Assembly (NCBI GenBank): GCA_020201335.1
Contig: JAIVGZ010000003.1
Coordinates: 1,781-65,780, forward strand
Reading direction: 5' to 3'
DNA: 64,000 bases
From: Natronospirales bacterium
GTDB taxonomy: Bacteria > Pseudomonadota > Gammaproteobacteria > Natronospirales > JAIVGZ01
The notes under the pieces are model-generated. The model searched no databases. It saw only the letters and a list, made by a program, of their open reading frames with translations, and was not told the DNA's origin. This document shows positions 11,260 through 25,923 of the stretch, piece after piece (position 1 is the stretch's first letter; every line of letters begins with the position of its first letter). Both the position numbers and the translations under genes were made by a program.

Positions 11260-11435
11260 CAATGTAGGAGCGGTGCTCCGCACCGAGATCGCAGAGGCTT
11301 GGACATGCAATGTAGGAGCGGTGCTCCGCACCGCGATAGCAGAGGCTCGGACTTGCAATGTAGGAGCGGTGCTCCGCACCGCGATAGCAGAGGCTCGGAC
11401 TTGCAATGTAGGAGCGGTGCTCCGCACCGCGATAG
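11260..11435 (+). repeat. Tandem array of four REP-type units (48-bp period)
   Basis: CAATGTAGGAGCGGTGCTCCGCACCGCGATAGCAGAGGCTCGGACTTG repeats at 11260, 11308, 11356 and 11404. The last copy is partial. The array is intergenic. Confidence 0.9.
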
Positions 11436-12116: not shown

Positions 12117-12135
12117 CACCAGCAGCCTTGCTCCC

Positions 12136-12163
12136 CTGTGGGAGCGAATCTGTGATTCGCGAC
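12136..12163 (+). repeat. REP-like palindrome variant (CTGTGGGAGCGAATCTGTGATTCGCGAC)
   Basis: 7-bp stem GCGAATC/GATTCGC downstream of wrbA. Confidence 0.6.
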
Positions 12164-12186
12164 TTGCGCTGGTTTAGAATTCGCTG

Positions 12187-12873
12187 ATGCTCAAATCACT
12201 GCTCCAGCGCACCGGCCTGCACGGCCTCGACCGCCGCGCGAAAAAAGCGCTCGGTATCCATAAAGACCACATGAGCCACCCGCCGTACGGGGCAGACGCC
12301 CACCGGCTGGTCAAGGCGCACATCGACATCGTGCGCTACGGCTCGATCGCACTCGCGCTGCACCGGCTGAACGAGGAGCAGGTACCGGGTGCGATGGCCG
12401 AGCTCGGTGTGTTCAAGGGCGAGCTCAGCGCATTCCTTGCGGCGATCGAGCGAAAACGCACGCTGCACCTGTTTGACACCTTCGCCGGGTTCCCCGAGGG
12501 CGACCTCGAGGCGGGCGAGACCAACGATGCGCGCTTCCAGGACACCAGCGAAGATGCGGTGCGCACGCGCATCGGCGACTGCAGCAATGTCCGCTTCCAC
12601 GTTGGCCCGTTCCCCGACACCGCGGGCCCGATCATGAACGAACGCTTCGCATTCGTGGTGCTCGACCCCGACAAGTACAAGCCGACGCTGGCTGGGCTTG
12701 AAATCTTCTACCCACGCATGCGCTCCGGCGGCTATATATTCATGCACGACTACAACAACCCCGAGTCCGACTTCGCGGTTTCGCGCGCCGCGCACGAATT
12801 CTTGCAGGACAAACCCGAAAAGCTCATCGACATCCCCGACGCCAACGGCTCGGCGCTGTTCCGGAAAACTTGA
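12187..12873 (+). CDS. TylF/MycF-family class I SAM-dependent O-methyltransferase
   Basis: 228 aa with ..ELGVFKGELSAFL.., ..FDTFAGFPE.., ..LDPDKYKPT.. and ..GGYIFMHDY.. patterns. Confidence 0.7.
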   Translation: MLKSLLQRTGLHGLDRRAKKALGIHKDHMSHPPYGADAHRLVKAHIDIVRYGSIALALHRLNEEQVPGAMAELGVFKGELSAFLAAIERKRTLHLFDTFAGFPEGDLEAGETNDARFQDTSEDAVRTRIGDCSNVRFHVGPFPDTAGPIMNERFAFVVLDPDKYKPTLAGLEIFYPRMRSGGYIFMHDYNNPESDFAVSRAAHEFLQDKPEKLIDIPDANGSALFRKT

Positions 12874-13268
12874 AAATCCCGCCCCCGATTGTTGGCGCTG
12901 CTTGCTGCGCGCTCGTGTGGGCGCTCGACCGCGCGCTCCCCACAGCGCGCATCGTGACGCGGTGGAACGACGAAATCGCGCTCGCGCTTTTGATTGCAGG
13001 CATCGGTCTCGCCGCCGCCGGCGCCATCTCGTTCGAGCGTGCAGACACGACCGTCGACCCGCTGCACCCGGAGCGCTCGACCGCGCTCGTCACGAGCGGC
13101 GTGTTCCGTATCACGCGCAACCCGATGTATGTCGGCATGGCACTCGGAGTCGCCGCGTTCGTCGTCTGGATCGACCGCATGCAGATACCCGCCGAGGAGC
13201 GCGCGCTGGCCGCGCACTTCGGGCCCGCGTTTGCTGCGTACCGAGACCGCGTCCGCCGCTGGCTCTAA
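12870..13268 (+). CDS. Isoprenylcysteine carboxyl methyltransferase (ICMT/PEMT)-family membrane protein, shortened
   Basis: ..TSGVFRITRNPMYVGMAL.. and the C-terminal ..AAYRDRVRRWL. Relative to the cassette paralogue (23364-23858) it lacks about 17 residues between the RNPMY helix and the PxEE motif. Confidence 0.65.
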   Translation: MKIPPPIVGAACCALVWALDRALPTARIVTRWNDEIALALLIAGIGLAAAGAISFERADTTVDPLHPERSTALVTSGVFRITRNPMYVGMALGVAAFVVWIDRMQIPAEERALAAHFGPAFAAYRDRVRRWL

Positions 13269-13284
13269 GCTTCAGTCCAACGCG

Positions 13285-13454
13285 GCTGCGTACAACGGCC
13301 CCGCACTCACGCGGGGGCCGCTTGTTGAAGAATAGGATGACATCCGTGCCCACGCGACATACGCCTTCTCGGTACTGCGCGCGTAGTGGCGGACCCGGAC
13401 TGCATCGCGGATTGACTGAAGGAACGCGGATTCTCCCATCACGCCTCCATGCAT
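13285..13454 (-). pseudogene. intI: Integron integrase (IntI) N-terminal remnant, frameshifted and 3'-truncated
   Basis: The minus strand reads MHGGVMGESAFLQSIRDAVRVRHYARSTEKAYVAWAR, then frame-shifts to ..VILFFNKRPPRECGAVV. This matches the IntI N-terminus (..IRxRHYSxRTExAYVxWxRRFIxFHxKRHPxEMG..). Only about 56 codons remain before the stop of the ICMT gene. Confidence 0.8.
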
Positions 13455-13554: not shown

Positions 13555-13612
13555 CCATTCCAATAACTAACCCAACTATGACCCTCCAACGGGTCACACA
13601 TAGTCGTTAGCG
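13555..13612 (+). promoter_or_regulatory. attI recombination site (junction GTTAGCG at 13606-13612)
   Basis: Lies directly between the intI start and the first cassette. TTAGCGCCAACG (13607 onward) is the reverse complement of CGTTGGCGCTAA, which precedes the first attC (14190-14201). The left side resembles the second junction at 18395-18455. Confidence 0.7.
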
Positions 13613-13617
13613 CCAAC

Positions 13618-14187
13618 GTGATCTCACGCTTTGCGTCAGGCATACAACGAGACGTATTGACACGCGCTGGCCTGACTGCTTGTGCCTTAATTGTGGTGAT
13701 TGCTAGCGGATTGCTACTGAGCATGTACTCTGACAAGGCGTTCAATTGGATTCCAGTCGCTGTAGGAATCTCCTTAGTGAGTTGGGCGCTCTTTTGGTTC
13801 CGGAGATATCGACAAGCACGCACCTGGATGCCTGTCGAGGCGCAGGTGCTGAAAATTATGGAAAAGTCGCGAGGTGTGCGAATCGGCGTCGGTCTCTACC
13901 TATACGTGTATCCATCCGTGACTTTTCGGTATGAGGTGCACGGGCAAACCTACATGGGGGGCGAGTCGAGCGTGGAGATTGAGAATATTTGGGTTCCCGA
14001 CTATGAGCGCACCTCCGCGTTCTGGGCAGACTGGGCAGATGGGAAACGGATTACCGCCGTTTACAATCCCACGAATCCTAAACAGGCGATGCTGATGACG
14101 GAACTTAGTAAGAGCCGGTTGTCCCACCACGCCGCTGTTCTGAGTGCAGGACTTCTTGTGCTTGTTTTAGGCGTGATTCTTCTGTGA
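13618..14187 (+). CDS. Cassette 1: DUF3592-like membrane protein
   Basis: 189 aa with TM helices at both ends. The central ..W.PVEAQV......YPSVTFRYEVHGQTY.G......GKRITAVYNPTNPKQAML.. pattern is typical of DUF3592. GTG start. Confidence 0.6.
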   Translation: MISRFASGIQRDVLTRAGLTACALIVVIASGLLLSMYSDKAFNWIPVAVGISLVSWALFWFRRYRQARTWMPVEAQVLKIMEKSRGVRIGVGLYLYVYPSVTFRYEVHGQTYMGGESSVEIENIWVPDYERTSAFWADWADGKRITAVYNPTNPKQAMLMTELSKSRLSHHAAVLSAGLLVLVLGVILL

Positions 14188-14192
14188 GGGTT

Positions 14193-14320
14193 GGCGCTAA
14201 CAATGCATCGGAGCGGCCGCGCTCCGCGGTTTCTAGGGAGGGTCTGGTAAAGATGACAAGGATAAAGTTCCAATCTGAAATCTCGGCGGCGTCGCGCGCC
14301 GCTCAACGCAGTCGTTAGAG
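14193..14320 (+). repeat. attC 1 (class A, about 128 bp)
   Basis: GGCGCTAAC...CATCGGAGCGGCCGCGC...GCGCGCCGCTCAACGCAGTC GTTAGAG. Confidence 0.85.
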
Positions 14321-14326
14321 GACGCT

Positions 14327-14869
14327 ATGTCCGTCGCCGACGTCGCCACCATTACGATCGCGCTCATCGCCCTCGCGGTATCCCTATACGCTGTCACGCG
14401 CGACCGAAGGCAACGACAGTTCGACTTGTTCCTTCGCTGCCACGATCGGTTAAAGCAGTTACAGAAGGAGACCCCTTTACTGCCGCCATCTCAGTATCTA
14501 GAAATGGAGGAAGACCCCGGGAACCCGGCTTGGGAGAAGTACCAAATCCAATCGACCGAGGCACAGTTGCGGCTTGATAGCGAATTAGAGACTGCATGCT
14601 ACTTGGCGGTGAAGGGCGAACTGAATGTGGAAGTATTCTTCAATTTATTTCGTGGCTGGCTTGCGATGAGAGATGTGATGTGGACCTCGGGGGTAGGCGA
14701 ACATCGCGCTCGAAATCACCCATACACAGTGGCGGTCATCGAAATGTGTAGAAGGCGTAAGCTGTTACCAATTAAGGATAATGTAGAGTTTCGAGAGATG
14801 ACGAAACTCGTGAACGAATACCTTGGCGAGTCGGCGTCCTCTAACAAAGCATTGGAGCGGTCGCGCTAA
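14327..14869 (+). CDS. Cassette 2: hypothetical protein with an N-terminal TM anchor
   Basis: 180-aa ORF starting 12 nt after the attC core. No recognisable family. The stop lies inside its attC. Confidence 0.6.
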   Translation: MSVADVATITIALIALAVSLYAVTRDRRQRQFDLFLRCHDRLKQLQKETPLLPPSQYLEMEEDPGNPAWEKYQIQSTEAQLRLDSELETACYLAVKGELNVEVFFNLFRGWLAMRDVMWTSGVGEHRARNHPYTVAVIEMCRRRKLLPIKDNVEFREMTKLVNEYLGESASSNKALERSR

Positions 14870-14968
14870 GGAGTGTTCGATGAATGGACTGGTAAAGACG
14901 AAGTTGGGAATAAAGTGCTTTCTGTCAGCGTCGCCGCTTCCGCGCGCCGCTCAACGCGGGTGTTAGGC
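14834..14968 (+). repeat. attC 2 (class A)
   Basis: GCGTCCTCTAAC (reverse complement of 14314 GTTAGAGGACGC) ... CCGCTCAACGCGGGT GTTAGGC. Confidence 0.85.
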
Positions 14969-14972
14969 GCCA

Positions 14973-15485
14973 ATGAGTGATCTCCGGCCAATCGTCGACT
15001 GGATGCAGGCGACTCACGATAAAGAGGCCGCGGAACGCATCGTCGCCTCACAGTGGCGCTATCTCGCGAGCTATTTCGAGAAATCCGTCGCCTATGCCAA
15101 CGTTCTCGTCATTGCGGGATACGCCAGCTACTTCGGGCTATGGACACTTGCCCGTACGCACATAGATACCGGCCCAGCGACTGCGTCAGCACTGCTAATG
15201 GCCATCTCAGTTGTGCTTTATCTGTCGTTCCAAGTGTTTTCGTTATTCCGAATGAGTCAGTCCGTCATTGACCATCAGGCTGCATTGAAAACTAGGCTGC
15301 GGGGAAAAAGCCCGCAGGAGATGGTAAAGGAACTCGAGGAAATTGAAGATGAGGCGGCAGAGTCCACGCTGAAGCTTATGCCCTGGTGGCGTCGGTTTGT
15401 GCTTTCGGCCATTGTTGCGGGCCTCGCCGCGTTTGGAATCCTCGGCTACGAGTTTGTACGTGTTCTGCACTATATTGGCGCCTAA
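14973..15485 (+). CDS. Cassette 3: hypothetical membrane protein (about 4 TM plus a central coiled segment)
   Basis: 170-aa ORF filling the cassette. No recognisable family. Confidence 0.6.
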   Translation: MSDLRPIVDWMQATHDKEAAERIVASQWRYLASYFEKSVAYANVLVIAGYASYFGLWTLARTHIDTGPATASALLMAISVVLYLSFQVFSLFRMSQSVIDHQAALKTRLRGKSPQEMVKELEEIEDEAAESTLKLMPWWRRFVLSAIVAGLAAFGILGYEFVRVLHYIGA

Positions 15486-15602
15486 CGATGCATTGGAGCG
15501 GCCGCGCTCCGCGGTTTCTAGGGAGGGACTGGGAAAGATGATCGGGATAAAGTGCAGATCGGCAAGGTTGGCGGCGCGTGCCGCTCAACGCAGGGGCTAA
15601 GC
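15477..15602 (+). repeat. attC 3 (class A) with a non-canonical core GCTAAGC
   Basis: GGCGCCTAAC (reverse complement of 14962 GTTAGGCGCC) ... CCGCTCAACGCAGGG GCTAAGC. The second core base is C, not T. Confidence 0.75.
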
Positions 15603-15612
15603 GGCTGAGAAA

Positions 15613-16356
15613 ATGCGTGAGCTACTCGAACAATCGGAAGCGCTTCAGAACCTGTTGATATCGCAGGCAACCGGAGGCCGCGAAGACGATGCGGAGTTCG
15701 TGCGGCTCCGACAGATGCTCCTCTCCAATCCTGCGCTAGATCCGTTCGTCCCTCGCTTTGTTCGAACATGCAGGAACCTGTCGCAGTTTTGGCAGTTCAT
15801 AAAGTTCAGGTACGGCAGTTATGCCGAACGTCGAGATTACATATGGAACGAGTTCGCCCCTCTGCTCGACGCCCTGGAGCGCGGACCACTTTCACCCGCT
15901 GATCAGCTTGTCTCCGAGAAGCTTGAGACTTTCGATGCCTCACACGTGCAAGCCGCCTGGTCCAAGGCGCTTGAACGGCGCACATCCGATCCGGAAGGGG
16001 CGATAACGTCCGCCCGTACCCTGATCGAGTCTGTGTGCAAGCACATCCTCGATTCTGCAGAGGTGCCTTATGATGATGGGGCAGATCTTCCAAAGCTTTA
16101 CAAATTGACGGCAGAAGCCCTGAAGCTCGCGCCCTCGCAGCATACCGAGTCAGTGTTCAAGCAGATCCTGGGCGGCTGCACTGCCGTAGTGGAAGGGCTC
16201 GGCTCCCTGAGAAACCGCCTGAGTGACGCGCATGGAAAAGGTAGGATCGGCTCAAAGCCCGCCTCTCGCCACGCCGAGTTGGCCGTCAATCTCTCTGGCG
16301 CACTGGCTATTTTCCTGCTGGCGACATGGGAAGCACGAAACGAGGCAGCACCCTAA
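15613..16356 (+). CDS. Cassette 4: Abi_C-domain (abortive infection C-terminus, AbiJ/Abi-like) protein
   Basis: 247 aa. The C-terminal half (..ARTLIESVCKHIL...LYKLTAEAL......GLGSLRNRLSDAHGKG....RHAELAVNLSGALAIFLL..) matches the Abi_C (PF14355-type) pattern as recalled. Confidence 0.65.
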   Translation: MRELLEQSEALQNLLISQATGGREDDAEFVRLRQMLLSNPALDPFVPRFVRTCRNLSQFWQFIKFRYGSYAERRDYIWNEFAPLLDALERGPLSPADQLVSEKLETFDASHVQAAWSKALERRTSDPEGAITSARTLIESVCKHILDSAEVPYDDGADLPKLYKLTAEALKLAPSQHTESVFKQILGGCTAVVEGLGSLRNRLSDAHGKGRIGSKPASRHAELAVNLSGALAIFLLATWEARNEAAP

Positions 16357-16441
16357 CTATGCGTTCAACCAGGCTGCGGGGAGAGGCTACTGTGTTTCCT
16401 GATATTCTGTCGGCCCGCTACCGCTTAACGCGGCGTTATGG
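16351..16441 (+). repeat. attC 4 (class B, about 91 bp)
   Basis: CCCTAACTATGCGTTCAACC...CCGCTTAACGCGGC GTTATGG. The inner arms GCGTTCAA/GCTTAACGC pair. Confidence 0.8.
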
Positions 16442-16980
16442 TCATGGCCCCGCTCGCTGACCGCGTGACCGTGAATCTCACGCCGCTCGAAATCGCCGAG
16501 CGCCAGATCGACCGTGCGATTACTTTATTTCTGGACGATGCAGATTATATTTCCGCATCAACCCTCGCCGGTGCAGCGGAGGGAATAATTGGCGACCTCC
16601 TGCGGCGCGGTGGGCGTCCCTACGCTTTGGATGACATAGTGAAAGGCGCAATGGCATTAACTAAAGAAATGGATCCTTCTGATTCGTCCAAAAGAAAAGA
16701 CTACATAGCATTCGTGAACGACTTTCGAGATCGTCTAAAACACCTAAAGAGTGGTGAAACACTGCACTGCTCGGTCGATTACGAAGCTGCTTGCTTGATT
16801 GACCGTGCGATGGACAATTACTTCAATCTGACCGAAAGCGAGACCGAGACGATGCTCCGCTTTCGGAGGTTTAACTACTTCGAAATTGAGACGGGGCAGC
16901 CAAAACAATGCATTGGAGCGGCCGCGGAACCTGCCCCGATAAAAGAGAAGCTCCCGAGTGAAATGCTTCGGGAAAAATAA
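16438..16980 (+). CDS. Cassette 5: hypothetical cytoplasmic protein
   Basis: 180-aa ORF. Its 3' end reads through the partial attC. No recognisable family. Confidence 0.55.
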   Translation: MVMAPLADRVTVNLTPLEIAERQIDRAITLFLDDADYISASTLAGAAEGIIGDLLRRGGRPYALDDIVKGAMALTKEMDPSDSSKRKDYIAFVNDFRDRLKHLKSGETLHCSVDYEAACLIDRAMDNYFNLTESETETMLRFRRFNYFEIETGQPKQCIGAAAEPAPIKEKLPSEMLREK

Positions 16981-16985
16981 AGCGT
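16897..16985 (+). repeat. attC 5, truncated (left arm and centre only)
   Basis: CAGCCAAAACAATGCATTGGAGCGGCCGCGGAACCTGCC..GGGAAAAATAAAGCG parallels the left two-thirds of attC 9 and 14. The right arm (GCGCGCCGCTCAACGC..GTTRRRY) is missing. Confidence 0.7.
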
Positions 16986-17012
16986 AGGCGAGCTCACGAA
17001 GGTAAAGAGATC

Positions 17013-18023
17013 ATGAAGAATAAAGGCCTGCTCCTTTTCCCAGTTCTGCTACTAGTTGCGCACATCGACGAAGTGCTAGCCGTTCAATCTCCCATGATTG
17101 ATAAGACTGACACTTGCTATCAGGGCGAATTCAGTAATCTTGAAAGCTACCTTTCTCGACCTATTACGAGAACGGCGTATGACGATCCGGTCCAGTTTGA
17201 GCGGGCAAGGGTCAGATACACCTGGTGGCGCGATAACTTCGATTGCGACTGGATCAGTTATTCAGTCGACGGTTTGGAGGTTAATGGCTTTGTTGTGAAG
17301 CCGACTGGCGACTCTCCACCAGAAGGGTGGCCCGTTGTAATTTTCAATCACGGGGGAAATGCCGACATCGGCTCGGTACGGTTCGAGTACATTGCAGCGC
17401 GCCTGTTCCCGATAGTTGAAGCCGGCTTCGTCGTTATGGGTACCCAGTACCGCGGCGCGAAGATTGACGGAGCCGATAGTCCGGACAGACTCCGGGATGA
17501 ATTCGGCGGAAGCGATGTCAACGATGTGCTCGCCTTGATTTCCATTGCAGATTCGATTCCGGAAGCGGATGGGAGCAGGATCGGAATGTATGGGATAAGC
17601 CGCGGCGGGATGATGAGTTTTCTTGCTGCGCGTCGTACAAACAGAATTTCGACAATAGTGGTACAAGATACGCCAACTGATTTGGTGCGAGGGTTGGAGT
17701 TCACGCCTGACATGGTGCGGGTATTTACCAAATGGATTCCTGACTATGAAAAGAATCCACATGAGGCCTTGATACAACGATCGGCGTTGTACTGGCTGGA
17801 TGAACTCGACCCAAACATGTCCGTATTGATCTTGCACGGCACTGCGGATCAACGGGTGAGTGCTGAACAGGCCTTGGTAACGGCACTTAAATTGCAGGAA
17901 TTGCGCCGCCAATATAAATTGGTTATCTACCCAAATGCGTCGCACGGTCTTCGTGAATATCATCAAGCCGTGGAAACAGAAATAATTGCTTGGTTCTCGT
18001 CGGTCCTCCGCAAGGATTACTGA
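17013..18023 (+). CDS. Secreted alpha/beta hydrolase (S9 prolyl-oligopeptidase/dienelactone-hydrolase-like)
   Basis: Signal peptide, nucleophile elbow GISRGGMM and ..LILHGTADQRV... 336 aa. Not bounded by an attC. Confidence 0.7.
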   Translation: MKNKGLLLFPVLLLVAHIDEVLAVQSPMIDKTDTCYQGEFSNLESYLSRPITRTAYDDPVQFERARVRYTWWRDNFDCDWISYSVDGLEVNGFVVKPTGDSPPEGWPVVIFNHGGNADIGSVRFEYIAARLFPIVEAGFVVMGTQYRGAKIDGADSPDRLRDEFGGSDVNDVLALISIADSIPEADGSRIGMYGISRGGMMSFLAARRTNRISTIVVQDTPTDLVRGLEFTPDMVRVFTKWIPDYEKNPHEALIQRSALYWLDELDPNMSVLILHGTADQRVSAEQALVTALKLQELRRQYKLVIYPNASHGLREYHQAVETEIIAWFSSVLRKDY

Positions 18024-18394
18024 TACACGGAGGGGCTGACCATAACTGTCTGTTTATCCAGCGTTAGCAAAGATGACGCCGCAGGATTTTCGCTCTGTGG
18101 AACGGACCGCCATGGCGCTAGCTAATTAGATCCGCCGCTCACTTTTCTGGGGGCGTTCGAGCAGCGCGAATGACCTGTCCTCCGTAATTAGTACCGCTTC
18201 CGGTCTCGCTCGCGCTGCCATCTCTGATCTCCTCACACTTTGGTGCATTCGGAGCAGAAGGCAGGTTCCATCACCTCATATTTGGGATGGATGAACGAGA
18301 GATGGACGAGTTCGTGCGGATTGGTGGACGAGCGGCGTTTCGATGCCCTACATTCTATTGCAACGAGCCCCAACGGACGGAGTCGGCATGCCTG

Positions 18395-18455
18395 AACGTT
18401 CCATATTAACTACCCCGCGTATAACCCCCCTGAGGGTCATACATAGGTGTTAGCG
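18395..18455 (+). promoter_or_regulatory. Second attI-like junction (GTTAGCG at 18449-18455)
   Basis: AACTACCCCGCGTATAACCCCCCTGAGGGTCATACATAGGTGTTAGCG resembles the attI at 13565-13612 (AACTAACCCAACTATGACCCTCCAACGGGTCACACATAGTCGTTAGCG). TTAGCGAACGAGCT is the reverse complement of AGCTCGTCCGCTAA (18951) with one mismatch. Confidence 0.6.
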
Positions 18456-18512
18456 AACGAGCTAGACCAGCCTCGTGCCGGGCGTATACTTGACCGAGAG
18501 AGGTAGGAGCGA

Positions 18513-18713
18513 ATGCGCAGACTTGACGAAATCGAGAACCAAATCAAGGCGCTCTCTCGCGAAGAGTTCAAAGAACTGCGCGAGTGGATTCTCGAGCGCG
18601 ATTGGGAAGCATGGGACGCTCAGGTCAGCCGTGACGCCGAGGCAGGGAAGCTGGACCACGCCTTGAACGAAGCGAGAGACGACTACAAGGCTGGGCGCTC
18701 GCGCGAGTTGTGA
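18513..18713 (+). CDS. Cassette 7: putative antitoxin partner of the ParE-like toxin
   Basis: 66-aa acidic helical protein overlapping the downstream toxin gene by 4 nt (GTGA). The antitoxin role is assigned by position. Confidence 0.55.
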   Translation: MRRLDEIENQIKALSREEFKELREWILERDWEAWDAQVSRDAEAGKLDHALNEARDDYKAGRSREL

Positions 18714-18964
18714 AGCATTCTGCCTCGTCGAAGTTCTGGTCGCTATACCAGAACTTGCCCAAGGAGGTCCGGGCCATTGCGGACAAGAGCTTCGAGATAC
18801 TCAAATCTGACCCGGGGCATCCTTCGCTCCATTTTAAAAAGATCGGTGCGCTTCGGTCTGTCCGAATCGGGCTCCAATACCGTGCTTTGGGATACGACGT
18901 GGATGGCGGTGTTCATTGGTTTTGGATCGGGACGCATGGGGAGTATGACAAGCTCGTCCGCTAA
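18710..18964 (+). CDS. Cassette 7: RelE/ParE-superfamily toxin (ParE-like)
   Basis: 84 aa with ..DPGHPSLHFKKIGALRSVRIGLQYRALG....WFWIGTHGEYDKL.. , the pattern of the ParE-like toxin family. Confidence 0.7.
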   Translation: MKHSASSKFWSLYQNLPKEVRAIADKSFEILKSDPGHPSLHFKKIGALRSVRIGLQYRALGYDVDGGVHWFWIGTHGEYDKLVR

Positions 18965-19084
18965 CAAAGCATTGGAGCGACCGCGCTCCGCGGTTTCTAG
19001 CGAGGACCTGGTAAAGATGACAAGGATAAAGTGCCTATCTGCAATCGCGGTGATGTCGCGCGCCGCTCAACGCGAGTGTTAGGC
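18951..19084 (+). repeat. attC 7 (class A)
   Basis: AGCTCGTCCGCTAACAAAGCATTGGAGCGACCGCGC...GCGCGCCGCTCAACGCGAGT GTTAGGC. Confidence 0.85.
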
Positions 19085-19104: not shown

Positions 19105-19302
19105 ATGCCCCCGAAAATCCGGGACCTTATCGCAGAATTGGAGCGCGCCGGCTTCGTGGACCGGGGCGGCAAAGGCAGCCACAGGAACTTCGTCCATCCC
19201 GGGGTTAAAATGCCGGTAACCGTCTCTGGCAACCTTGGCGACGATGCGAAGCACTACCAGACCCGTGCAGTAAAGAGGGCGCTGGAGGAGGCGAAGAAAT
19301 GA
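19105..19302 (+). CDS. hicA: Cassette 8: HicA-family mRNA interferase toxin
   Basis: 65 aa. ..LERAGFVDRGGKGSHRNFVHPG.. is the HicA/YcfA signature. Confidence 0.8.
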   Translation: MPPKIRDLIAELERAGFVDRGGKGSHRNFVHPGVKMPVTVSGNLGDDAKHYQTRAVKRALEEAKK

Positions 19303-19538
19303 AGGACAGCGCGAAGTACGTCAAGTTGGTGGAATGGTCCGAGGAGGACCAATGCTACGTCGGTAGCGCTCCGGGTCTCATCTTTGGCGGATGCCACGGC
19401 GACAACGAGAAGGCCGTCTTTGACGAACTTTGCGACGTCGTCGAGGAGACGATCGCGCTTTATCACAAGGATGGCAAAGCTCTGCCGCCTCCAACTGCAG
19501 GGCAGGACTTAGCCAACAAGCTGCAGACCGTCGCCTAA
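19299..19538 (+). CDS. hicB: Cassette 8: HicB-family antitoxin
   Basis: 79 aa overlapping hicA by 4 nt. ..WSEEDQCYVGSAPGL..CHGDNEKAVFDEL..VEETIALY.. is HicB-like. Confidence 0.7.
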   Translation: MKDSAKYVKLVEWSEEDQCYVGSAPGLIFGGCHGDNEKAVFDELCDVVEETIALYHKDGKALPPPTAGQDLANKLQTVA

Positions 19539-19658
19539 CAAAGCATTGGAGCGGCCGCGCTCCGCGGTTTCTAGGGAGGGACTGGTAAAGATGACAAGGA
19601 TAAAGTTCCGATCTGAAATCGCGGTGTGGTCGCGCGCCGCTCAACGCAGGTGTTAGAT
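19527..19658 (+). repeat. attC 8 (class A)
   Basis: ACCGTCGCCTAAC (reverse complement of 19078 GTTAGGCAACGGT, one mismatch) ... CCGCTCAACGCAGGT GTTAGAT. Confidence 0.85.
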
Positions 19659-20237: not shown

Positions 20238-20358
20238 CGAAGCATTGGAGCGGTCGCGCGGAGCTGCCGATTAGCGAGGGACTGGAAATGCGTTCAGGGA
20301 TAAAGTGCTTCTCAACAGCGGTCGCCGGTCCGCGCGCCGCTCAACGCTGGGGTTAGGC
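20228..20358 (+). repeat. attC 9 (class A variant)
   Basis: ACGGCATCTAACGAAGCATTGGAGCGGTCGCGCGGAGCTGCC...GCGCGCCGCTCAACGCTGGG GTTAGGC. Confidence 0.85.
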
Positions 20359-20984: not shown

Positions 20985-21254
20985 ATGCAGTTCGAATGGT
21001 CCAAGGAGAAGGCCCAAGCAAATGCGACAAAGCACGGGGTCACATTCTTGGAAGCCCGTACCGTATTCGGCGATCCGCTGTCCTCGACAACCCCGGACCC
21101 TGAGCACTCGCTGGACGAAGCTAGGTTCCTGATATTTGGTCGTTCTGTTACAGGTCGAGCCCTTGTCGTATCCTTTACCGAGCGTGGCGAAAGTATCCGC
21201 CTCATTTCGGCCCGTTCAATGACGCCGCGCGAGATTCGAGCCTATGAGCAATAA
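20985..21254 (+). CDS. brnT: Cassette 11: BrnT-family (DUF497) ribonuclease toxin
   Basis: 89 aa. ..FEWSKEKAQANATKHGVTFLEARTVFGDP......R.LIFG......LVVSFTERGESIRLISAR.. is the BrnT pattern. Confidence 0.8.
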   Translation: MQFEWSKEKAQANATKHGVTFLEARTVFGDPLSSTTPDPEHSLDEARFLIFGRSVTGRALVVSFTERGESIRLISARSMTPREIRAYEQ

Positions 21255-21450
21255 CGACGACAAGCTGAGAGACGAATACCCCGAGGACCTCATCCGCGGC
21301 GGGGAGCGGGGTAAGTACGCCGCGCGATATCGAGAAAGCGAACACTTCGTTGCGATAGATCCCGAAATGCACGAACTCTTTCCAGACGCGGAGTCTGTGA
21401 ATAAAGCACTCCGTGAGTATGCCGCCGAGAAGAAGAAGTCCGCGCCCTAA
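21244..21450 (+). CDS. brnA: Cassette 11: BrnA-like antitoxin
   Basis: 68 aa overlapping brnT by 11 nt. ..GERGKYAARY....VAIDPEMHELFPDAESVNKALR.. is BrnA-like. Confidence 0.65.
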   Translation: MSNNDDKLRDEYPEDLIRGGERGKYAARYRESEHFVAIDPEMHELFPDAESVNKALREYAAEKKKSAP

Positions 21451-21570
21451 CAAAGCATTGGAGCGGCCGCGCTCCGCGGTTTCTATGGAGGGACTGGTAA
21501 AGATGTCAGGGATAAAGTGCAACTTGGCTAGCTCGGCGCTGTCACGCGCCGCTCAACGCGGGTGTTAGGC
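21439..21570 (+). repeat. attC 11 (class A)
   Basis: TCCGCGCCCTAACAAAGCATTGGAGCGGCCGCGC...CACGCGCCGCTCAACGCGGGT GTTAGGC. Confidence 0.85.
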
Positions 21571-22839: not shown

Positions 22840-22880
22840 GGTCTAACCATGCGTTCAAGCGGACCGCGGGGAGAGGCTAT
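22836..22880 (+). repeat. attC 13, truncated (class B left arm only)
   Basis: GTGAGGTCTAAC (exact reverse complement of 22276 GTTAGACCTCAC) CATGCGTTCAAGCGGACCGCGGGGAGAGGCTAT parallels the left half of attC 4, then breaks. Confidence 0.75.
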
Positions 22881-22883
22881 CGG

Positions 22884-22991
22884 AAAGGGACAAAGGTCAT
22901 CTTGCTTTTGGCAGGTGGTGACAAGTCCACGCAACGGCGTGATATTGAACGCGCTGTCGATCTACTCAACCAGTTGGACCTTGAATCATGA
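22884..22991 (+). pseudogene. 3' remnant of an addiction-module killer (HigB/RelE-type) toxin gene
   Basis: Reads ..VILLLAGGDKSTQRRDIERAVDLLNQLDLES*, the conserved C-terminus of the 'addiction module killer protein' family. The stop overlaps the downstream ATG (ATGA). The N-terminal ~70 codons are absent. Confidence 0.7.
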
Positions 22992-23203
22992 GCCACTCTA
23001 AGCCAAAGAAACCGAAGATTGTGCCTTTCGATGCCGCCCGATACCTAGGCGACGACAAGGCAATCGCGGAGTACATGACCGCCGTGCTTGAAAGCGACGA
23101 TCCCGATCTGTTGCTGGCGGCGCTCGGAGACGTAGCTCGTGCTAAAGGAATGGGCGAGGTTGCAAAGGCCTTGGGGATTCAGCTTACCGCTAAGGTGGCA
23201 TGA
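22988..23203 (+). CDS. Addiction-module antidote protein (HigA-family), probably shortened
   Basis: ..PFDAARYLGDDKAIAEYMTAVLESDDPDLLLAALGDVARAKGM.. matches the antidote family N-terminus. The HTH region appears abbreviated (71 aa). Confidence 0.65.
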   Translation: MSHSKPKKPKIVPFDAARYLGDDKAIAEYMTAVLESDDPDLLLAALGDVARAKGMGEVAKALGIQLTAKVA

Positions 23204-23204
23204 T

Positions 23205-23333
23205 TGGCTCTAACGAAGCATTGGAGCGGCCGCGCGGAGGCAGTTTCAATGAAGGGACTGGAAATGAGTATATGGATAAAGTGCAATTCAATTAGGCAGG
23301 CGCGTCCGCACGCCGCTAAACGCGTCGTTATGC
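23205..23333 (+). repeat. attC 14 (class A variant)
   Basis: TGGCTCTAACGAAGCATTGGAGCGGCCGCGCGGAGGCAG...GCACGCCGCTAAACGCGTC GTTATGC. Confidence 0.8.
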
Positions 23334-23363
23334 AGCGCCACGCAAACCTTAAGGAGTACCACT

Positions 23364-23858
23364 ATGGTTGAAAATCAATTTGCTGCTACCGCAAAACCGA
23401 TTCCGCCGGAGTGTGTCGTCCGCGTTCCACCGTGGGTATGGTTTCTCCTGTCACTGTTGGTAGCAATCGGACTGCATCGCATTTTGCCACTTGAGGTCCT
23501 GCCACCGACGGTGAACTCTCTGTTTGGCTGGGTCGTAGTTGGCTTGGGTATGGCCGTGTTGGCGTGGTCGGAACAGCAATTCTCCCGCCACCGAACTTCC
23601 CATGACCATAAGGCAGTCGCATCGACGCTGATTACGACGGGTCCGTTCCGGTTCTCACGGAACCCCGTGTATCTTGGGCTCTCGATACTGCTCGTCGGAT
23701 TCGCAATTACTTTGAATATCCTTTGGCTCCTGCTTGCGGCACCACTGGCGCTACTCGTGATGCAGTTGCATGTAGTGCCGAGGGAGGAGGCGTGCTTGGA
23801 GCAGTTGTTTCCAGAGGCGTATCCGCGTTATCGCCAATCTGTACGGCGCTGGTTATGA
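23364..23858 (+). CDS. Cassette 15: ICMT/PEMT-family methyltransferase-like membrane protein
   Basis: 164 aa. ..TTGPFRFSRNPVYLGL.....VPREEACLEQLFPEAYPRYRQSVRRWL. Confidence 0.7.
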   Translation: MVENQFAATAKPIPPECVVRVPPWVWFLLSLLVAIGLHRILPLEVLPPTVNSLFGWVVVGLGMAVLAWSEQQFSRHRTSHDHKAVASTLITTGPFRFSRNPVYLGLSILLVGFAITLNILWLLLAAPLALLVMQLHVVPREEACLEQLFPEAYPRYRQSVRRWL

Positions 23859-24447: not shown

Positions 24448-24471
24448 GTGACGTCGACGCTGGGGTTATGC
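24448..24471 (+). repeat. attC 16 remnant (collapsed to about 24 bp)
   Basis: GTGACGTC (compare the expected GTGATGTCTAAC from 23993 GTTAGACATCAC) is fused directly to GACGCTGGGGTTATGC, the right end of a class A attC. Confidence 0.55.
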
Positions 24472-24504
24472 GGACTTCCGGCGCCAAGGGTAGAGGAGGA
24501 GCGC

Positions 24505-25873: not shown

Positions 25874-25923
25874 CGGCGTCCGCGTTCCACCCTGGGTATG
25901 GTTTCTCCTGAAGGAGGGGTCGA

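Follow-up and report, generated by a model that had tools for sequence, protein, structure and literature searches.

How does an integron cassette array come to contain a second, orphan attI ahead of its sixth cassette? The array lies in a 64-kb window (the whole stretch of DNA that was analysed) from a 79-kb NCBI contig of an environmental metagenome-assembled genome (MAG) of the Xanthomonadaceae, and its contiguity rests on the MAG assembly. It is of the sedentary type with homogeneous 130-bp attCs, and these repeats occur throughout at ~130 bp and 61–84% identity. An earlier note, made from the sequence, had described a non-cassette segment that interrupts the array and ends in a second attI-like junction, and had proposed two histories: a tandem fusion of two integron platforms with loss of the second intI, or duplication of attI inside the array. 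The parts needed to compare the two sites are as follows.

13272–13454, reverse strand: primary intI stump of ~60 codons with a frameshift; it adjoins a PEMT-like gene whose 3' end is at 13268.
13558–13606, forward strand: primary attI core, crossover G13606|TTAGCG, including TGACCC-N6-GGGTCA and ACATAG.
13607–16435, forward strand: cassettes 1–4 of the proximal sub-array (DUF3592, two unknowns and an Abi_C protein); attC1–3 of the long type, attC4 of the short type.
18399–18449, forward strand: second, orphan attI core, crossover G18449|TTAGCG, 4.8 kb downstream of the normal insertion site.
18450–19078, forward strand: cassette 6, first of the distal sub-array, with an antitoxin-like ORF (18513–18713), a ParE-like toxin (18710–18964) and attC6.

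The primary platform is a recognizable, decayed integron head. Its intI stump matches the N-terminus of PF13495 (Pfam, E 1e-4), aligns with amino acids 17–42 of IntI1 (tblastn, E 0.002) and scores 49.8 bits with a profile of IntI N-termini of its clade; a word-index protein search with the repaired stump gave no match. A DNA profile built from two related platforms, L013 and L014, matches at E 4e-20. The attI lies next to the integrase gene and divergent from it, 152–167 nt from the intI start (167 nt from ATG to crossover), and the start of cassette 1 is complementary to the attC1 flank at 11/16 positions. The core is homologous to the attI of L013 and contains TATGACCCTC twice, an internal repeat that is a candidate integrase-binding site. 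The primary recombination site of class 1 integrons, attI1, is 65 bp long. Both sites of this array are like attI1 in size (~50–65 bp), in the crossover G|TTRRRY and in having internal repeats as possible integrase-binding sites. However, they show no sequence similarity to attI1 and, unlike its L/R simple site, carry an inverted repeat RACCC-N5-6-GGGTCA 9 nt from the crossover.

The second site resembles the primary one closely enough to be compared column by column: 36 of 48 columns are identical (75%; 13558–13603 versus 18399–18446), with the register preserved up to the crossover G|TT. Their local alignment has a score of 40, compared with 18.8 +/- 2.2 for 500 dinucleotide shuffles (z ~10), and without the cassette-derived TTAGCG it still scores 32, the maximum in 1000 shuffles being 30. 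The resemblance over ~55 bp reported in the earlier note thus holds as a core of ~50 bp, and it outscores all of the shuffled controls that the note had proposed. None of the 13 cassette junctions other than that at 18449 resembles attI. Cassette 6 (ParE_like, E 2e-4 for its toxin; 143 bits for attC6 with the attC model) begins exactly at G18449|T, and 14 of its 16 first bases, TTAGCGAACGAGCTAG, match the reverse complement of its own attC6 R'' flank, a signature that the other cassettes show at 7–14/16. The complementarity pointed out earlier between the bases after GTT and the start of the next attC is therefore confirmed, and the junction is real. Here, a cassette is joined at a crossover of the form G|TTRRRY, namely G18449|TTAGCG.

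Independent support comes from L013, a metagenome contig with an attI beside IntI P0244, the closest IntI N-terminal relative found. When its attI is compared with the whole window, the second site ranks first (score 26) and the primary site next (24), both in one register; 13 of 13 bases, AGGGTCATACATA, are shared with the second site. The L013 attI matches the second site no less well than the primary one. Judged by its sequence, the junction at the second site is of a genuine attI type, as had been claimed for it: it has a true crossover and is homologous to the primary and L013 attIs, which belong to one integrase clade. The attI core of L014 differs, and the core is thus non-uniform across the integrase clade. 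L016 (P0255), another candidate for comparison, proved to be an unrelated AT-rich integron. The spacer between intI and attI aligns well between the primary platform and L014, a true close relative (z 4.8), whereas it is not conserved between the primary platform and L013 (z -0.56). Since these last two are both bona fide platforms, the absence of a conserved spacer at the second site is uninformative. Promoter and terminator scans at both platforms were likewise uninformative.

Upstream of the second site, the array is interrupted by the following features.

16436–16980, forward strand: start of cassette 5 and its ORF (16438–16980, 180 aa, no family), which reads through the attC5 left arm.
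16897–16931, forward strand: left arm of attC5 alone (R'' CCAAAAC and AATGCATTGGAGCGGCCGCG); right arm absent.
17013–18023, forward strand: full-length Peptidase_S9/DLH alpha/beta hydrolase gene (prolyl-oligopeptidase/dienelactone-hydrolase type), with a signal-peptide-like N-terminus and GC of ~50%.
18032–18046, forward strand: R''-like inverted copy of the first bases of cassette 5 (16435–16451), GGGGC--TGACCATAAC, 15 nt, 14 nt past the hydrolase stop.
18047–18256, no strand assigned: non-coding DNA, 210 nt, with no Pfam, Rfam, IntI-profile or platform-profile match.
18257–18298, reverse strand: putative relic of a second intI, with a ribosome-binding site, an ATG (18271–18269) and codons M-E-P-A-F.

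An attC HMM and covariance model trained on the eight long-type attCs found no right arm of attC5 in 16930–18455; the recognized left arm is confined to 16904–16926, which align to model positions 11–33 (nhmmer, E 3e-4). The loss of the right arm, placed near 16985 by the earlier note, is therefore upheld as a loss, and the position would fit a weak attC8-like similarity that possibly runs on to ~16982 (p ~0.06). The secreted alpha/beta hydrolase and ~425 bp of non-coding DNA described behind attC5 are present: the gene is complete (PF00326, E 1.5e-24 in Pfam; full-length alignment to homologues) and 426 nt (18024–18449) follow it, in which six-frame Pfam and Rfam searches gave no match and no group II intron was found. 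The nearest hydrolase homologues (62–66% identity) have ordinary chromosomal surroundings without attC. Exact-protein look-ups of the hydrolase and of the TylF gene of the window returned no match, and relatives of the latter (72–89% identity) lie on contigs without an integron. No match was obtained in a plasmid BLAST of 16880–18470.

The inverted copy behind the hydrolase shares an exact 10-mer with the start of cassette 5 that occurs at just these two places in the window, and it scores 24 compared with 15.5 +/- 1.5 for shuffled queries; no attC follows it. Because this copy lies past the hydrolase, the label 'non-cassette segment' is insecure, the proximal array may end in a composite cassette that includes the hydrolase, and the history of the seam was more complicated than one deletion. 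Four candidate explanations of the segment were rejected: (i) the stretch 18038–18158 as attC5's lost right arm or as a degenerate attC, where AAAGATGAC, CGCCGCTCA and GTT occur in the correct order, but with z -0.45 in global alignment to the eight attCs and no hairpin; (ii) derivation of the hydrolase start codon from the small ORF built into attC (17001–17036 versus the attC centre, E 6.9); (iii) an inversion of the segment bounded by two perfect inverted repeats of 10 nt (16926 and 18260), which disagrees with the position of the conserved Phe codon of the stub inside that segment; (iv) a transposon around the hydrolase, for which terminal inverted repeats and target duplications were not found.

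The short reverse-strand element at 18257–18298 may be the stub of a second intI. It was spotted by eye first and its statistics were computed afterwards: a gap-tolerant alignment with the block at the primary intI start scores 37, whereas shuffles reach 25.2 +/- 3.5 (p 0.004) and random windows give p < 0.001; the alignment is not significant under strict gap costs. Between its ATG and the crossover are 178 nt, a spacing that is 177 nt in L013 and 167 nt at the primary platform. The intI traces that had been suspected in 18024–18449 do not extend, as coding sequence, beyond ~5 codons by the second site in searches with IntI1 (tblastn), six-frame Pfam, the clade IntI profile and the platform DNA profile. 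An integrase remnant in 18024–18256 was ruled out by IntI1 tblastn, six-frame Pfam, the clade IntI N-terminal profile and the platform DNA profile.

We lean towards an explanation in which two related integron platforms stand in tandem and the second intI has been deleted. The interruption would then be the seam of two related sedentary-integron arrays joined head to tail, and the distal array (cassette 6 onward) would retain its own insertion platform, made up of a ~50-bp attI core with crossover G18449|TT, an unconserved spacer of ~100 bp and a ~40-bp stub of a divergent integrase gene (ATG at 18271). The remainder of that gene would have been deleted, leaving to the left of the stub the 210 nt and the complete hydrolase gene, itself placed after the half-destroyed attC5. 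We infer this tandem history rather than a duplication because the primary core is as far from the second one as from the attI of another organism and because the intI-start relic has the spacing and strand expected of a platform.

The earlier note did not know of either history as a standard integron feature, but precedents exist. The closest is In104 of SGI1, a complex class 1 integron with a pair of attI1 sites, of which the second follows a truncated groEL-intI1 fusion (PMC3285670, PMC7056807). Like In104, this locus has two attI-type sites in the same orientation with cassettes at each; in In104 the second site is preceded by an integrase gene of which only the 5' part is left, joined to foreign DNA (PMC3285670, PMC7056807), a state comparable to the candidate stub here, where the 5' intI fragment is only suggestive and contiguity depends on the assembly. 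The two loci also differ: the repeated 5' segments of In104 are 441 bp long and perfectly identical, whereas the platforms here are ~75% identical over ~50 bp; its first intI1 is functional, whereas both integrases are dead here, the second with ~5 codons; and its integrons, on a mobile island of clinical bacteria, have 3'-CS, floR and tet(G) between them, whereas the present array is of the sedentary type in an environmental MAG. Tandem integrons are known from clinical class 1 integrons and are little described in chromosomal ones.

The most serious rival, which we nevertheless consider unlikely, is that an integrase moved the hydrolase segment in as a pseudo-cassette of the 'delta-attI' type, with an attI fragment in place of attC as its 3' site. 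Cassettes ending in attI fragments have been catalogued (PMC12901181); they are known in class 1 and 2 integrons, are recombination-proficient, and include a full attI1-ORF-attI1 and a 244-nt delta-attI2 (PMC12901181). As in these unusual cassettes, attI-derived sequence stands 3' of a gene inside the array and the next cassette follows at G|TT. Cassette-like termini also stand on either side of the hydrolase, whose start lies ~27 nt past the last attC5-like sequence, as in a promoterless cassette gene. However, in most of the catalogued cassettes the retained attI1 or attI2 sequence is 14–18 nt long and matches the resident site exactly, and a proper crossover bounds the cassette upstream (PMC12901181), whereas here ~50 nt of diverged attI occur with a probable intI stub, and a broken attC rather than a crossover point forms the upstream limit. 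Moreover, 350 nt separate the R''-like repeat (18032–18046) from the attI core (18399), the hydrolase homologues are ordinary chromosomal genes, and the intI-start relic with its conserved spacing argues for a whole platform, more than an attI fragment.

A metagenome mis-assembly of two integrons from co-occurring strains is improbable too, and slightly more so. Repeats such as attCs are classic sites of chimeric joins in assemblies, and the MAG contig contains many of them at the lengths and identities given above. Nevertheless, the sole repeat shared at the seam is ~25 nt of attC left arm, and the stretch comprising the hydrolase, the 210 nt, the stub, the second attI and cassette 6 is unique sequence without internal repeats. 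GC content is equal on both sides of the seam, and one attC family is mixed across both. Even if the contig had been joined there, the donor would carry a partial attC upstream of the hydrolase, the stub and the second attI, and would still be a tandem.

The other history that the earlier note had allowed, a recent tandem duplication of the primary attI within the array, is very improbable, the tandem platforms being favoured. Both sites do share a core and are each followed by TTAGCG, but this hexamer is part of each cassette's own attC, core identity is just 75% and comparable to the distance to the L013 attI, the spacer is unalignable whereas that of the primary site aligns with L014, and no cassette is duplicated. 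Hardly credible, finally, is a chance resemblance, or an attC of a rare short family: the aligned stretch is just ~50 bp and a weak hairpin CTAAC...TGACCC-loop-GGGTCA...GTTAG is possible in both elements, but the score exceeds that of every shuffle, the register to the crossover is shared, a third, independent copy adjoins an intI in L013, the attC covariance model and HMM find no significant match at 18399–18455 or 13558–13612, the span from CTAAC to GTTAG is 47 nt, short of the 57–141 bp of attCs (minimum 57 nt; PMC12901181), and the elements fold weakly (-4.6 to -9.1 kcal/mol, z 0.1 to -2.8), the top strand of the second site no better than its shuffles (z 0.1).

The locus as it stands is a frozen one. 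No full intI occurs in the 64-kb window and no intact intI adjoins the attCs, as IntegronFinder takes a complete integron to have, so that the locus would class as CALIN. Several deletion scars besides attC5 mark the array. Because the first intI, too, is only a 60-codon stump, both attI sites are probably inert fossils by now; with both integrases dead, the locus has no evident present-day function. Chromosomal integrons of Xanthomonas with inactivated intI (Gillings 2005, cited in bioRxiv 10.1101/2025.06.18.660453) and CALIN arrays (Cury 2016, PMC4889954) are comparable: the host is of the same family, the integrase has been inactivated by deletion or frameshift, and the arrays are frozen and decay slowly. 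The Xanthomonas integrons lie downstream of ilvD, whereas the array here abuts PEMT-like and TylF-like methyltransferase genes. As far as these reports were consulted, they mention no second attI inside an array.

Given a cognate integrase in trans, the tandem arrangement predicts that cassettes could enter at either site and that recombination between the two attIs would excise cassettes 1–5 and the hydrolase as a circle of ~4.8 kb, because this is the established behaviour of IntI recombinases. That sedentary chromosomal integrons can fuse to bipartite arrays that keep an internal, still recombination-competent attI is a long shot; were it true, there would be a second insertion point deep in the array, and the multi-cassette block of cassettes 1–5 plus hydrolase could be excised and transferred en bloc as one circle with the integrase supplied in trans. 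If the contiguity of the contig is real, chromosomal arrays would also grow by the joining of whole integrons, besides cassette by cassette, and their platforms would decay piecemeal, the integrase being lost first and attI last.

The attIs of chromosomal integrons are barely annotated, and present tools recognize classes 1–3 only; internal or orphan attIs would therefore escape notice. When GTDB genomes and JGI metagenomes were scanned with GGGTCA[Y/N]ACATAGNNGTTAG, only chance matches were obtained, and these scans therefore give no second genome with the arrangement; L013, a real relative, has CATAAGGGTTAG, which shows that this pattern was too strict. For one integrase clade of the Xanthomonadales type, the analysis defines the conserved attI core RACCC-N5-6-GGGTCAYACATA-N3-5-G|TTAG, a motif that could serve to find further cases. 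The compact attI of this clade, hairpin-capable and with CTAAC...GTTAG ends, could possibly represent an evolutionary intermediate between attC and attI.

The integron array, at ~55% GC in host DNA of ~65%, spans 13.6 to ~27.6 kb of the window, which comes from a metagenome-assembled genome (MAG). Its attC recombination sites include eight ~130-bp sites of one family (61-84% pairwise identity) and several shorter types. Most cassettes begin with 10-14 nt that are reverse-complementary to the sequence next to the R'' of the cassette's own attC (7-14/16). The 64-kb window contains no intact integrase, and the primary platform at the array start retains a stump:

13272-13454, minus strand: primary intI stump matching the N-terminal SAM-like domain (a clade IntI N-terminus profile scores it at 49.8 bits)

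The stump carries a frameshift, and its end abuts the stop codon of a PEMT-like gene. Only 26 residues (13421-13344) align in a tblastn search of the window with an IntI1 sequence, and the clade IntI profile independently agrees. The primary attI crossover is G13606|TTAGCG. The PEMT/ICMT-like gene abutting the stump (12870-13268) has a distant paralogue in a distal-array cassette (23364-23858; 27% identity, E 1e-15), relative to which it is ~15-20 residues short.

A second attI-like core (18399-18449) precedes cassette 6. The last ~50 nt of the non-coding stretch there align to the primary attI with a score of 40, compared with 18.8 +/- 2.2 for shuffles, and once the six bases that come from the cassette are left out, 36 of 48 columns still agree, exceeding all 1000 shuffles. 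The match stops 3 nt short of the crossover in both copies and is unique to the 18449 junction (one of 13 cassette junctions). Cassette 6 is complementary to its own attC R'' flank at 14/16 positions, and this complementarity begins precisely with T18450. What lies to the left of 18449 therefore does not belong to cassette 6, and the crossover falls at the point expected for an integrase. The attI likeness described in the earlier note holds against shuffled controls, and its claim of a genuine attI x attC-type junction is borne out.

When the 60-residue stump was used as query in an exhaustive HMMER search, short IntI N-terminal fragments were returned. The closest, P0244 (65% identity, same MxGGxMG start), lies on the JGI metagenome contig L013, which carries ...ACGGACCCCAAAAGGGTCATACATAAGG|GTTAGG upstream of intI at the expected distance. 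Scanned over the whole window, this attI best matched the second site (score 26, 13/13 AGGGTCATACATA), followed by the primary site (score 24); thus RACCC-N5-6-GGGTCAYACATA-N3-5-G|TTAG is common to three sites, two of them beside intI. A second relative, L014 (P0245), shares the long attC family, and its spacer is homologous to that of the primary platform (z 4.8); its attI core is different. P0244 (L013 257-862) is itself broken, its ORF becoming beta-lactamase/esterase-like past ~residue 170 (weak PF00144 match), and integrase decay therefore seems common in this IntI clade.

Most likely, the locus consists of two related integrons in head-to-tail order. Its proximal array, made up of cassettes 1-5 and perhaps a hydrolase gene, would run into the platform of the distal array, whose integrase gene would have lost all but a 5' stub by deletion. 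With 75% identity, the attI cores are as far apart as each is from another organism's attI, which points to two separate platforms within one clade, and the occurrence of the same attC family to the left and right of the seam fits two integrons of the same lineage. We infer that neither attI site can now act unless an integrase is provided in trans. An attI-terminated pseudo-cassette is an unlikely alternative; attI fragments within arrays are already on record under the name delta-attI-type cassettes, among them a full attI1-ORF-attI1 (PMC12901181), so that the earlier note overstated the novelty of the arrangement. Less likely still is an assembly chimera, which would leave the oddity standing because the donor genome would still carry a partial attC upstream of the hydrolase, the stub and the second attI. 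Of the two histories offered earlier, fused tandem platforms are favoured, whereas a recent attI duplication is very improbable given a core identity no higher than that to another organism's attI. Chance resemblance, or an attC variant, is just as improbable.

No coding trace of a second integrase was found in 16900-18460 by IntI1 tblastn, Pfam, the clade IntI profile or a profile of L013 and L014 platform DNA, which finds the primary platform at E 4e-20. The most conserved platform block (intI ribosome-binding site, start codon and first codons) does align to 18257-18298 on the minus strand, with several short gaps. The candidate, ...CCCAAATATGAGGTGATGGAACCTGCCTTC, reads M-E-P-A-F, compared with M-G-E-S-A-F, M-G-S-P-F and M-G-K-S-A-F in three relatives. 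It scores 37, whereas shuffles of all 375 nt of the non-coding stretch give 25.2 +/- 3.5 (p 0.004), and the comparison with random windows gives p < 0.001; it is not significant under strict gap penalties, and was first spotted by eye, with the statistics run afterwards. The distance from its ATG to the crossover is 178 nt, close to the 177 nt of L013 and the 167 nt of the primary site. Even the primary and L013 platforms, both bona fide, do not align in the spacer that separates intI start from attI core (z -0.56), and the missing similarity of this spacer at the second site therefore says nothing. On this sequence evidence, 18257-18298 is a probable, not proven, 5' stub of a second intI.

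The interruption described in the earlier note, comprising attC5 loss, a hydrolase gene, non-coding DNA and the attI resemblance, is present in all four elements, and its interpretation was largely right. Of attC5, models built on the long attC family (HMM and covariance model) detect the left arm alone (16904-16926, E 3e-4), and no right arm was found in 16930-18455. The loss had been placed near 16985, which would agree with a weaker attC8-variant-like similarity that may extend to ~16982 (p ~0.06). The ORF at 17013-18023 encodes a full alpha/beta hydrolase of S9/DLH type whose N-terminus is variable and signal-peptide-like, in agreement with the secreted enzyme proposed; the protein is 100% identical to one annotated 'prolyl oligopeptidase family serine peptidase' in a Xanthomonadaceae bacterium MAG. 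Its GC content (~50%) is below that of both host and cassettes, and its closest homologues (62-66% identity) occupy ordinary chromosomal neighbourhoods, beside catalase or a MacB-type permease, with no attC. The following 426 nt, previously put at ~425 bp of non-coding DNA, gave no Pfam (six frames) or Rfam match.

Whether this segment is 'non-cassette', as it had been labelled, is uncertain. Unexpectedly, the start of cassette 5 (GTTATGGTCATGGCCCC, 16435-16451) recurs as an inverted copy of 15 nt, GGGGC--TGACCATAAC, at 18032-18046, 14 nt past the hydrolase stop. Its exact 10-mer is absent elsewhere in the window, and it fits the cassette 5 start better than does the R'' on the attC5 left arm (16892-16908). 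Such a copy is the signature of a cassette's own R'', so the hydrolase may lie, together with ORF 16438-16980, in a composite cassette 5. Beyond 18046, no stretch resembles an attC by score or by folding. An inverted repeat of 10 nt without mismatch, GGAACCTGCC / GGCAGGTTCC, joins the exact end of the attC5 left-arm homology (16926-16935) to codons 2-4 of the putative stub (18260-18269); chance alone should produce roughly one such pair in this 1.7-kb stretch, and a model of inversion between the repeats does not fit.

Compared with known cases, this is a sedentary-type array in an environmental MAG, with diverged platforms and both integrases lost; in a limited literature search, no sedentary chromosomal integron with an internal attI was found described. 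Integrase decay and CALINs (attC arrays without an intact integrase) are typical of Xanthomonas integrons (bioRxiv 10.1101/2025.06.18.660453). Further deletion scars fit an integrase-less, decaying array:

22841-23001: short-type attC left arm, cut off and fused to a 5'-truncated addiction-module toxin ORF
~24454-24473: orphan R' end with almost no attC ahead
25880-25912: 33-nt piece of the cassette gene at 23417-23450, repeated 2.4 kb downstream

At least four toxin-antitoxin-type cassettes (ParE-like, HicA/HicB-like, BrnT with partner, and HI1420-type antidote with truncated toxin) cluster directly after the second attI:

18513-18964: toxin-antitoxin-type cassette
19105-19538: toxin-antitoxin-type cassette
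20985-21450: toxin-antitoxin-type cassette
22849-23203: toxin-antitoxin-type cassette

One account holds that such cassettes are thought to stabilise large arrays (PMC13108822). All eight long-type attCs contain a small ORF on the cassette-sense strand:

14253-14318: attC small ORF
14880-14966: attC small ORF
15538-15600: attC small ORF
19017-19082: attC small ORF
19591-19656: attC small ORF
20288-20356: attC small ORF
21503-21568: attC small ORF
23264-23371: attC small ORF

These ORFs (20-35 codons, M..IK[CF]...RAAQR..) have an SD-like GGAGG/GAGGG 10-12 nt ahead of the ATG and end in the TAG that forms part of the GTTAG core, or for attC3 in the TAA of its mutated core; that of attC13 runs on, its TGA overlapping the ATG of the next gene. 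In the cases read, the start codon of the next cassette follows ~5-45 nt further on. They may serve as a built-in translational-coupling leader. Elsewhere in the window, GTAG-type palindromic repeats (CAATGTAGGAGCGGTGCTCCGCACCGCGAT) occur at 11260-11435, 1013-1058, 1507-1552 and 12135-12170, with three tandem copies at a 48-bp period; we take them to resemble the SMAG/REP elements of Stenotrophomonas and relatives, a likeness that fits the Xanthomonadaceae label.
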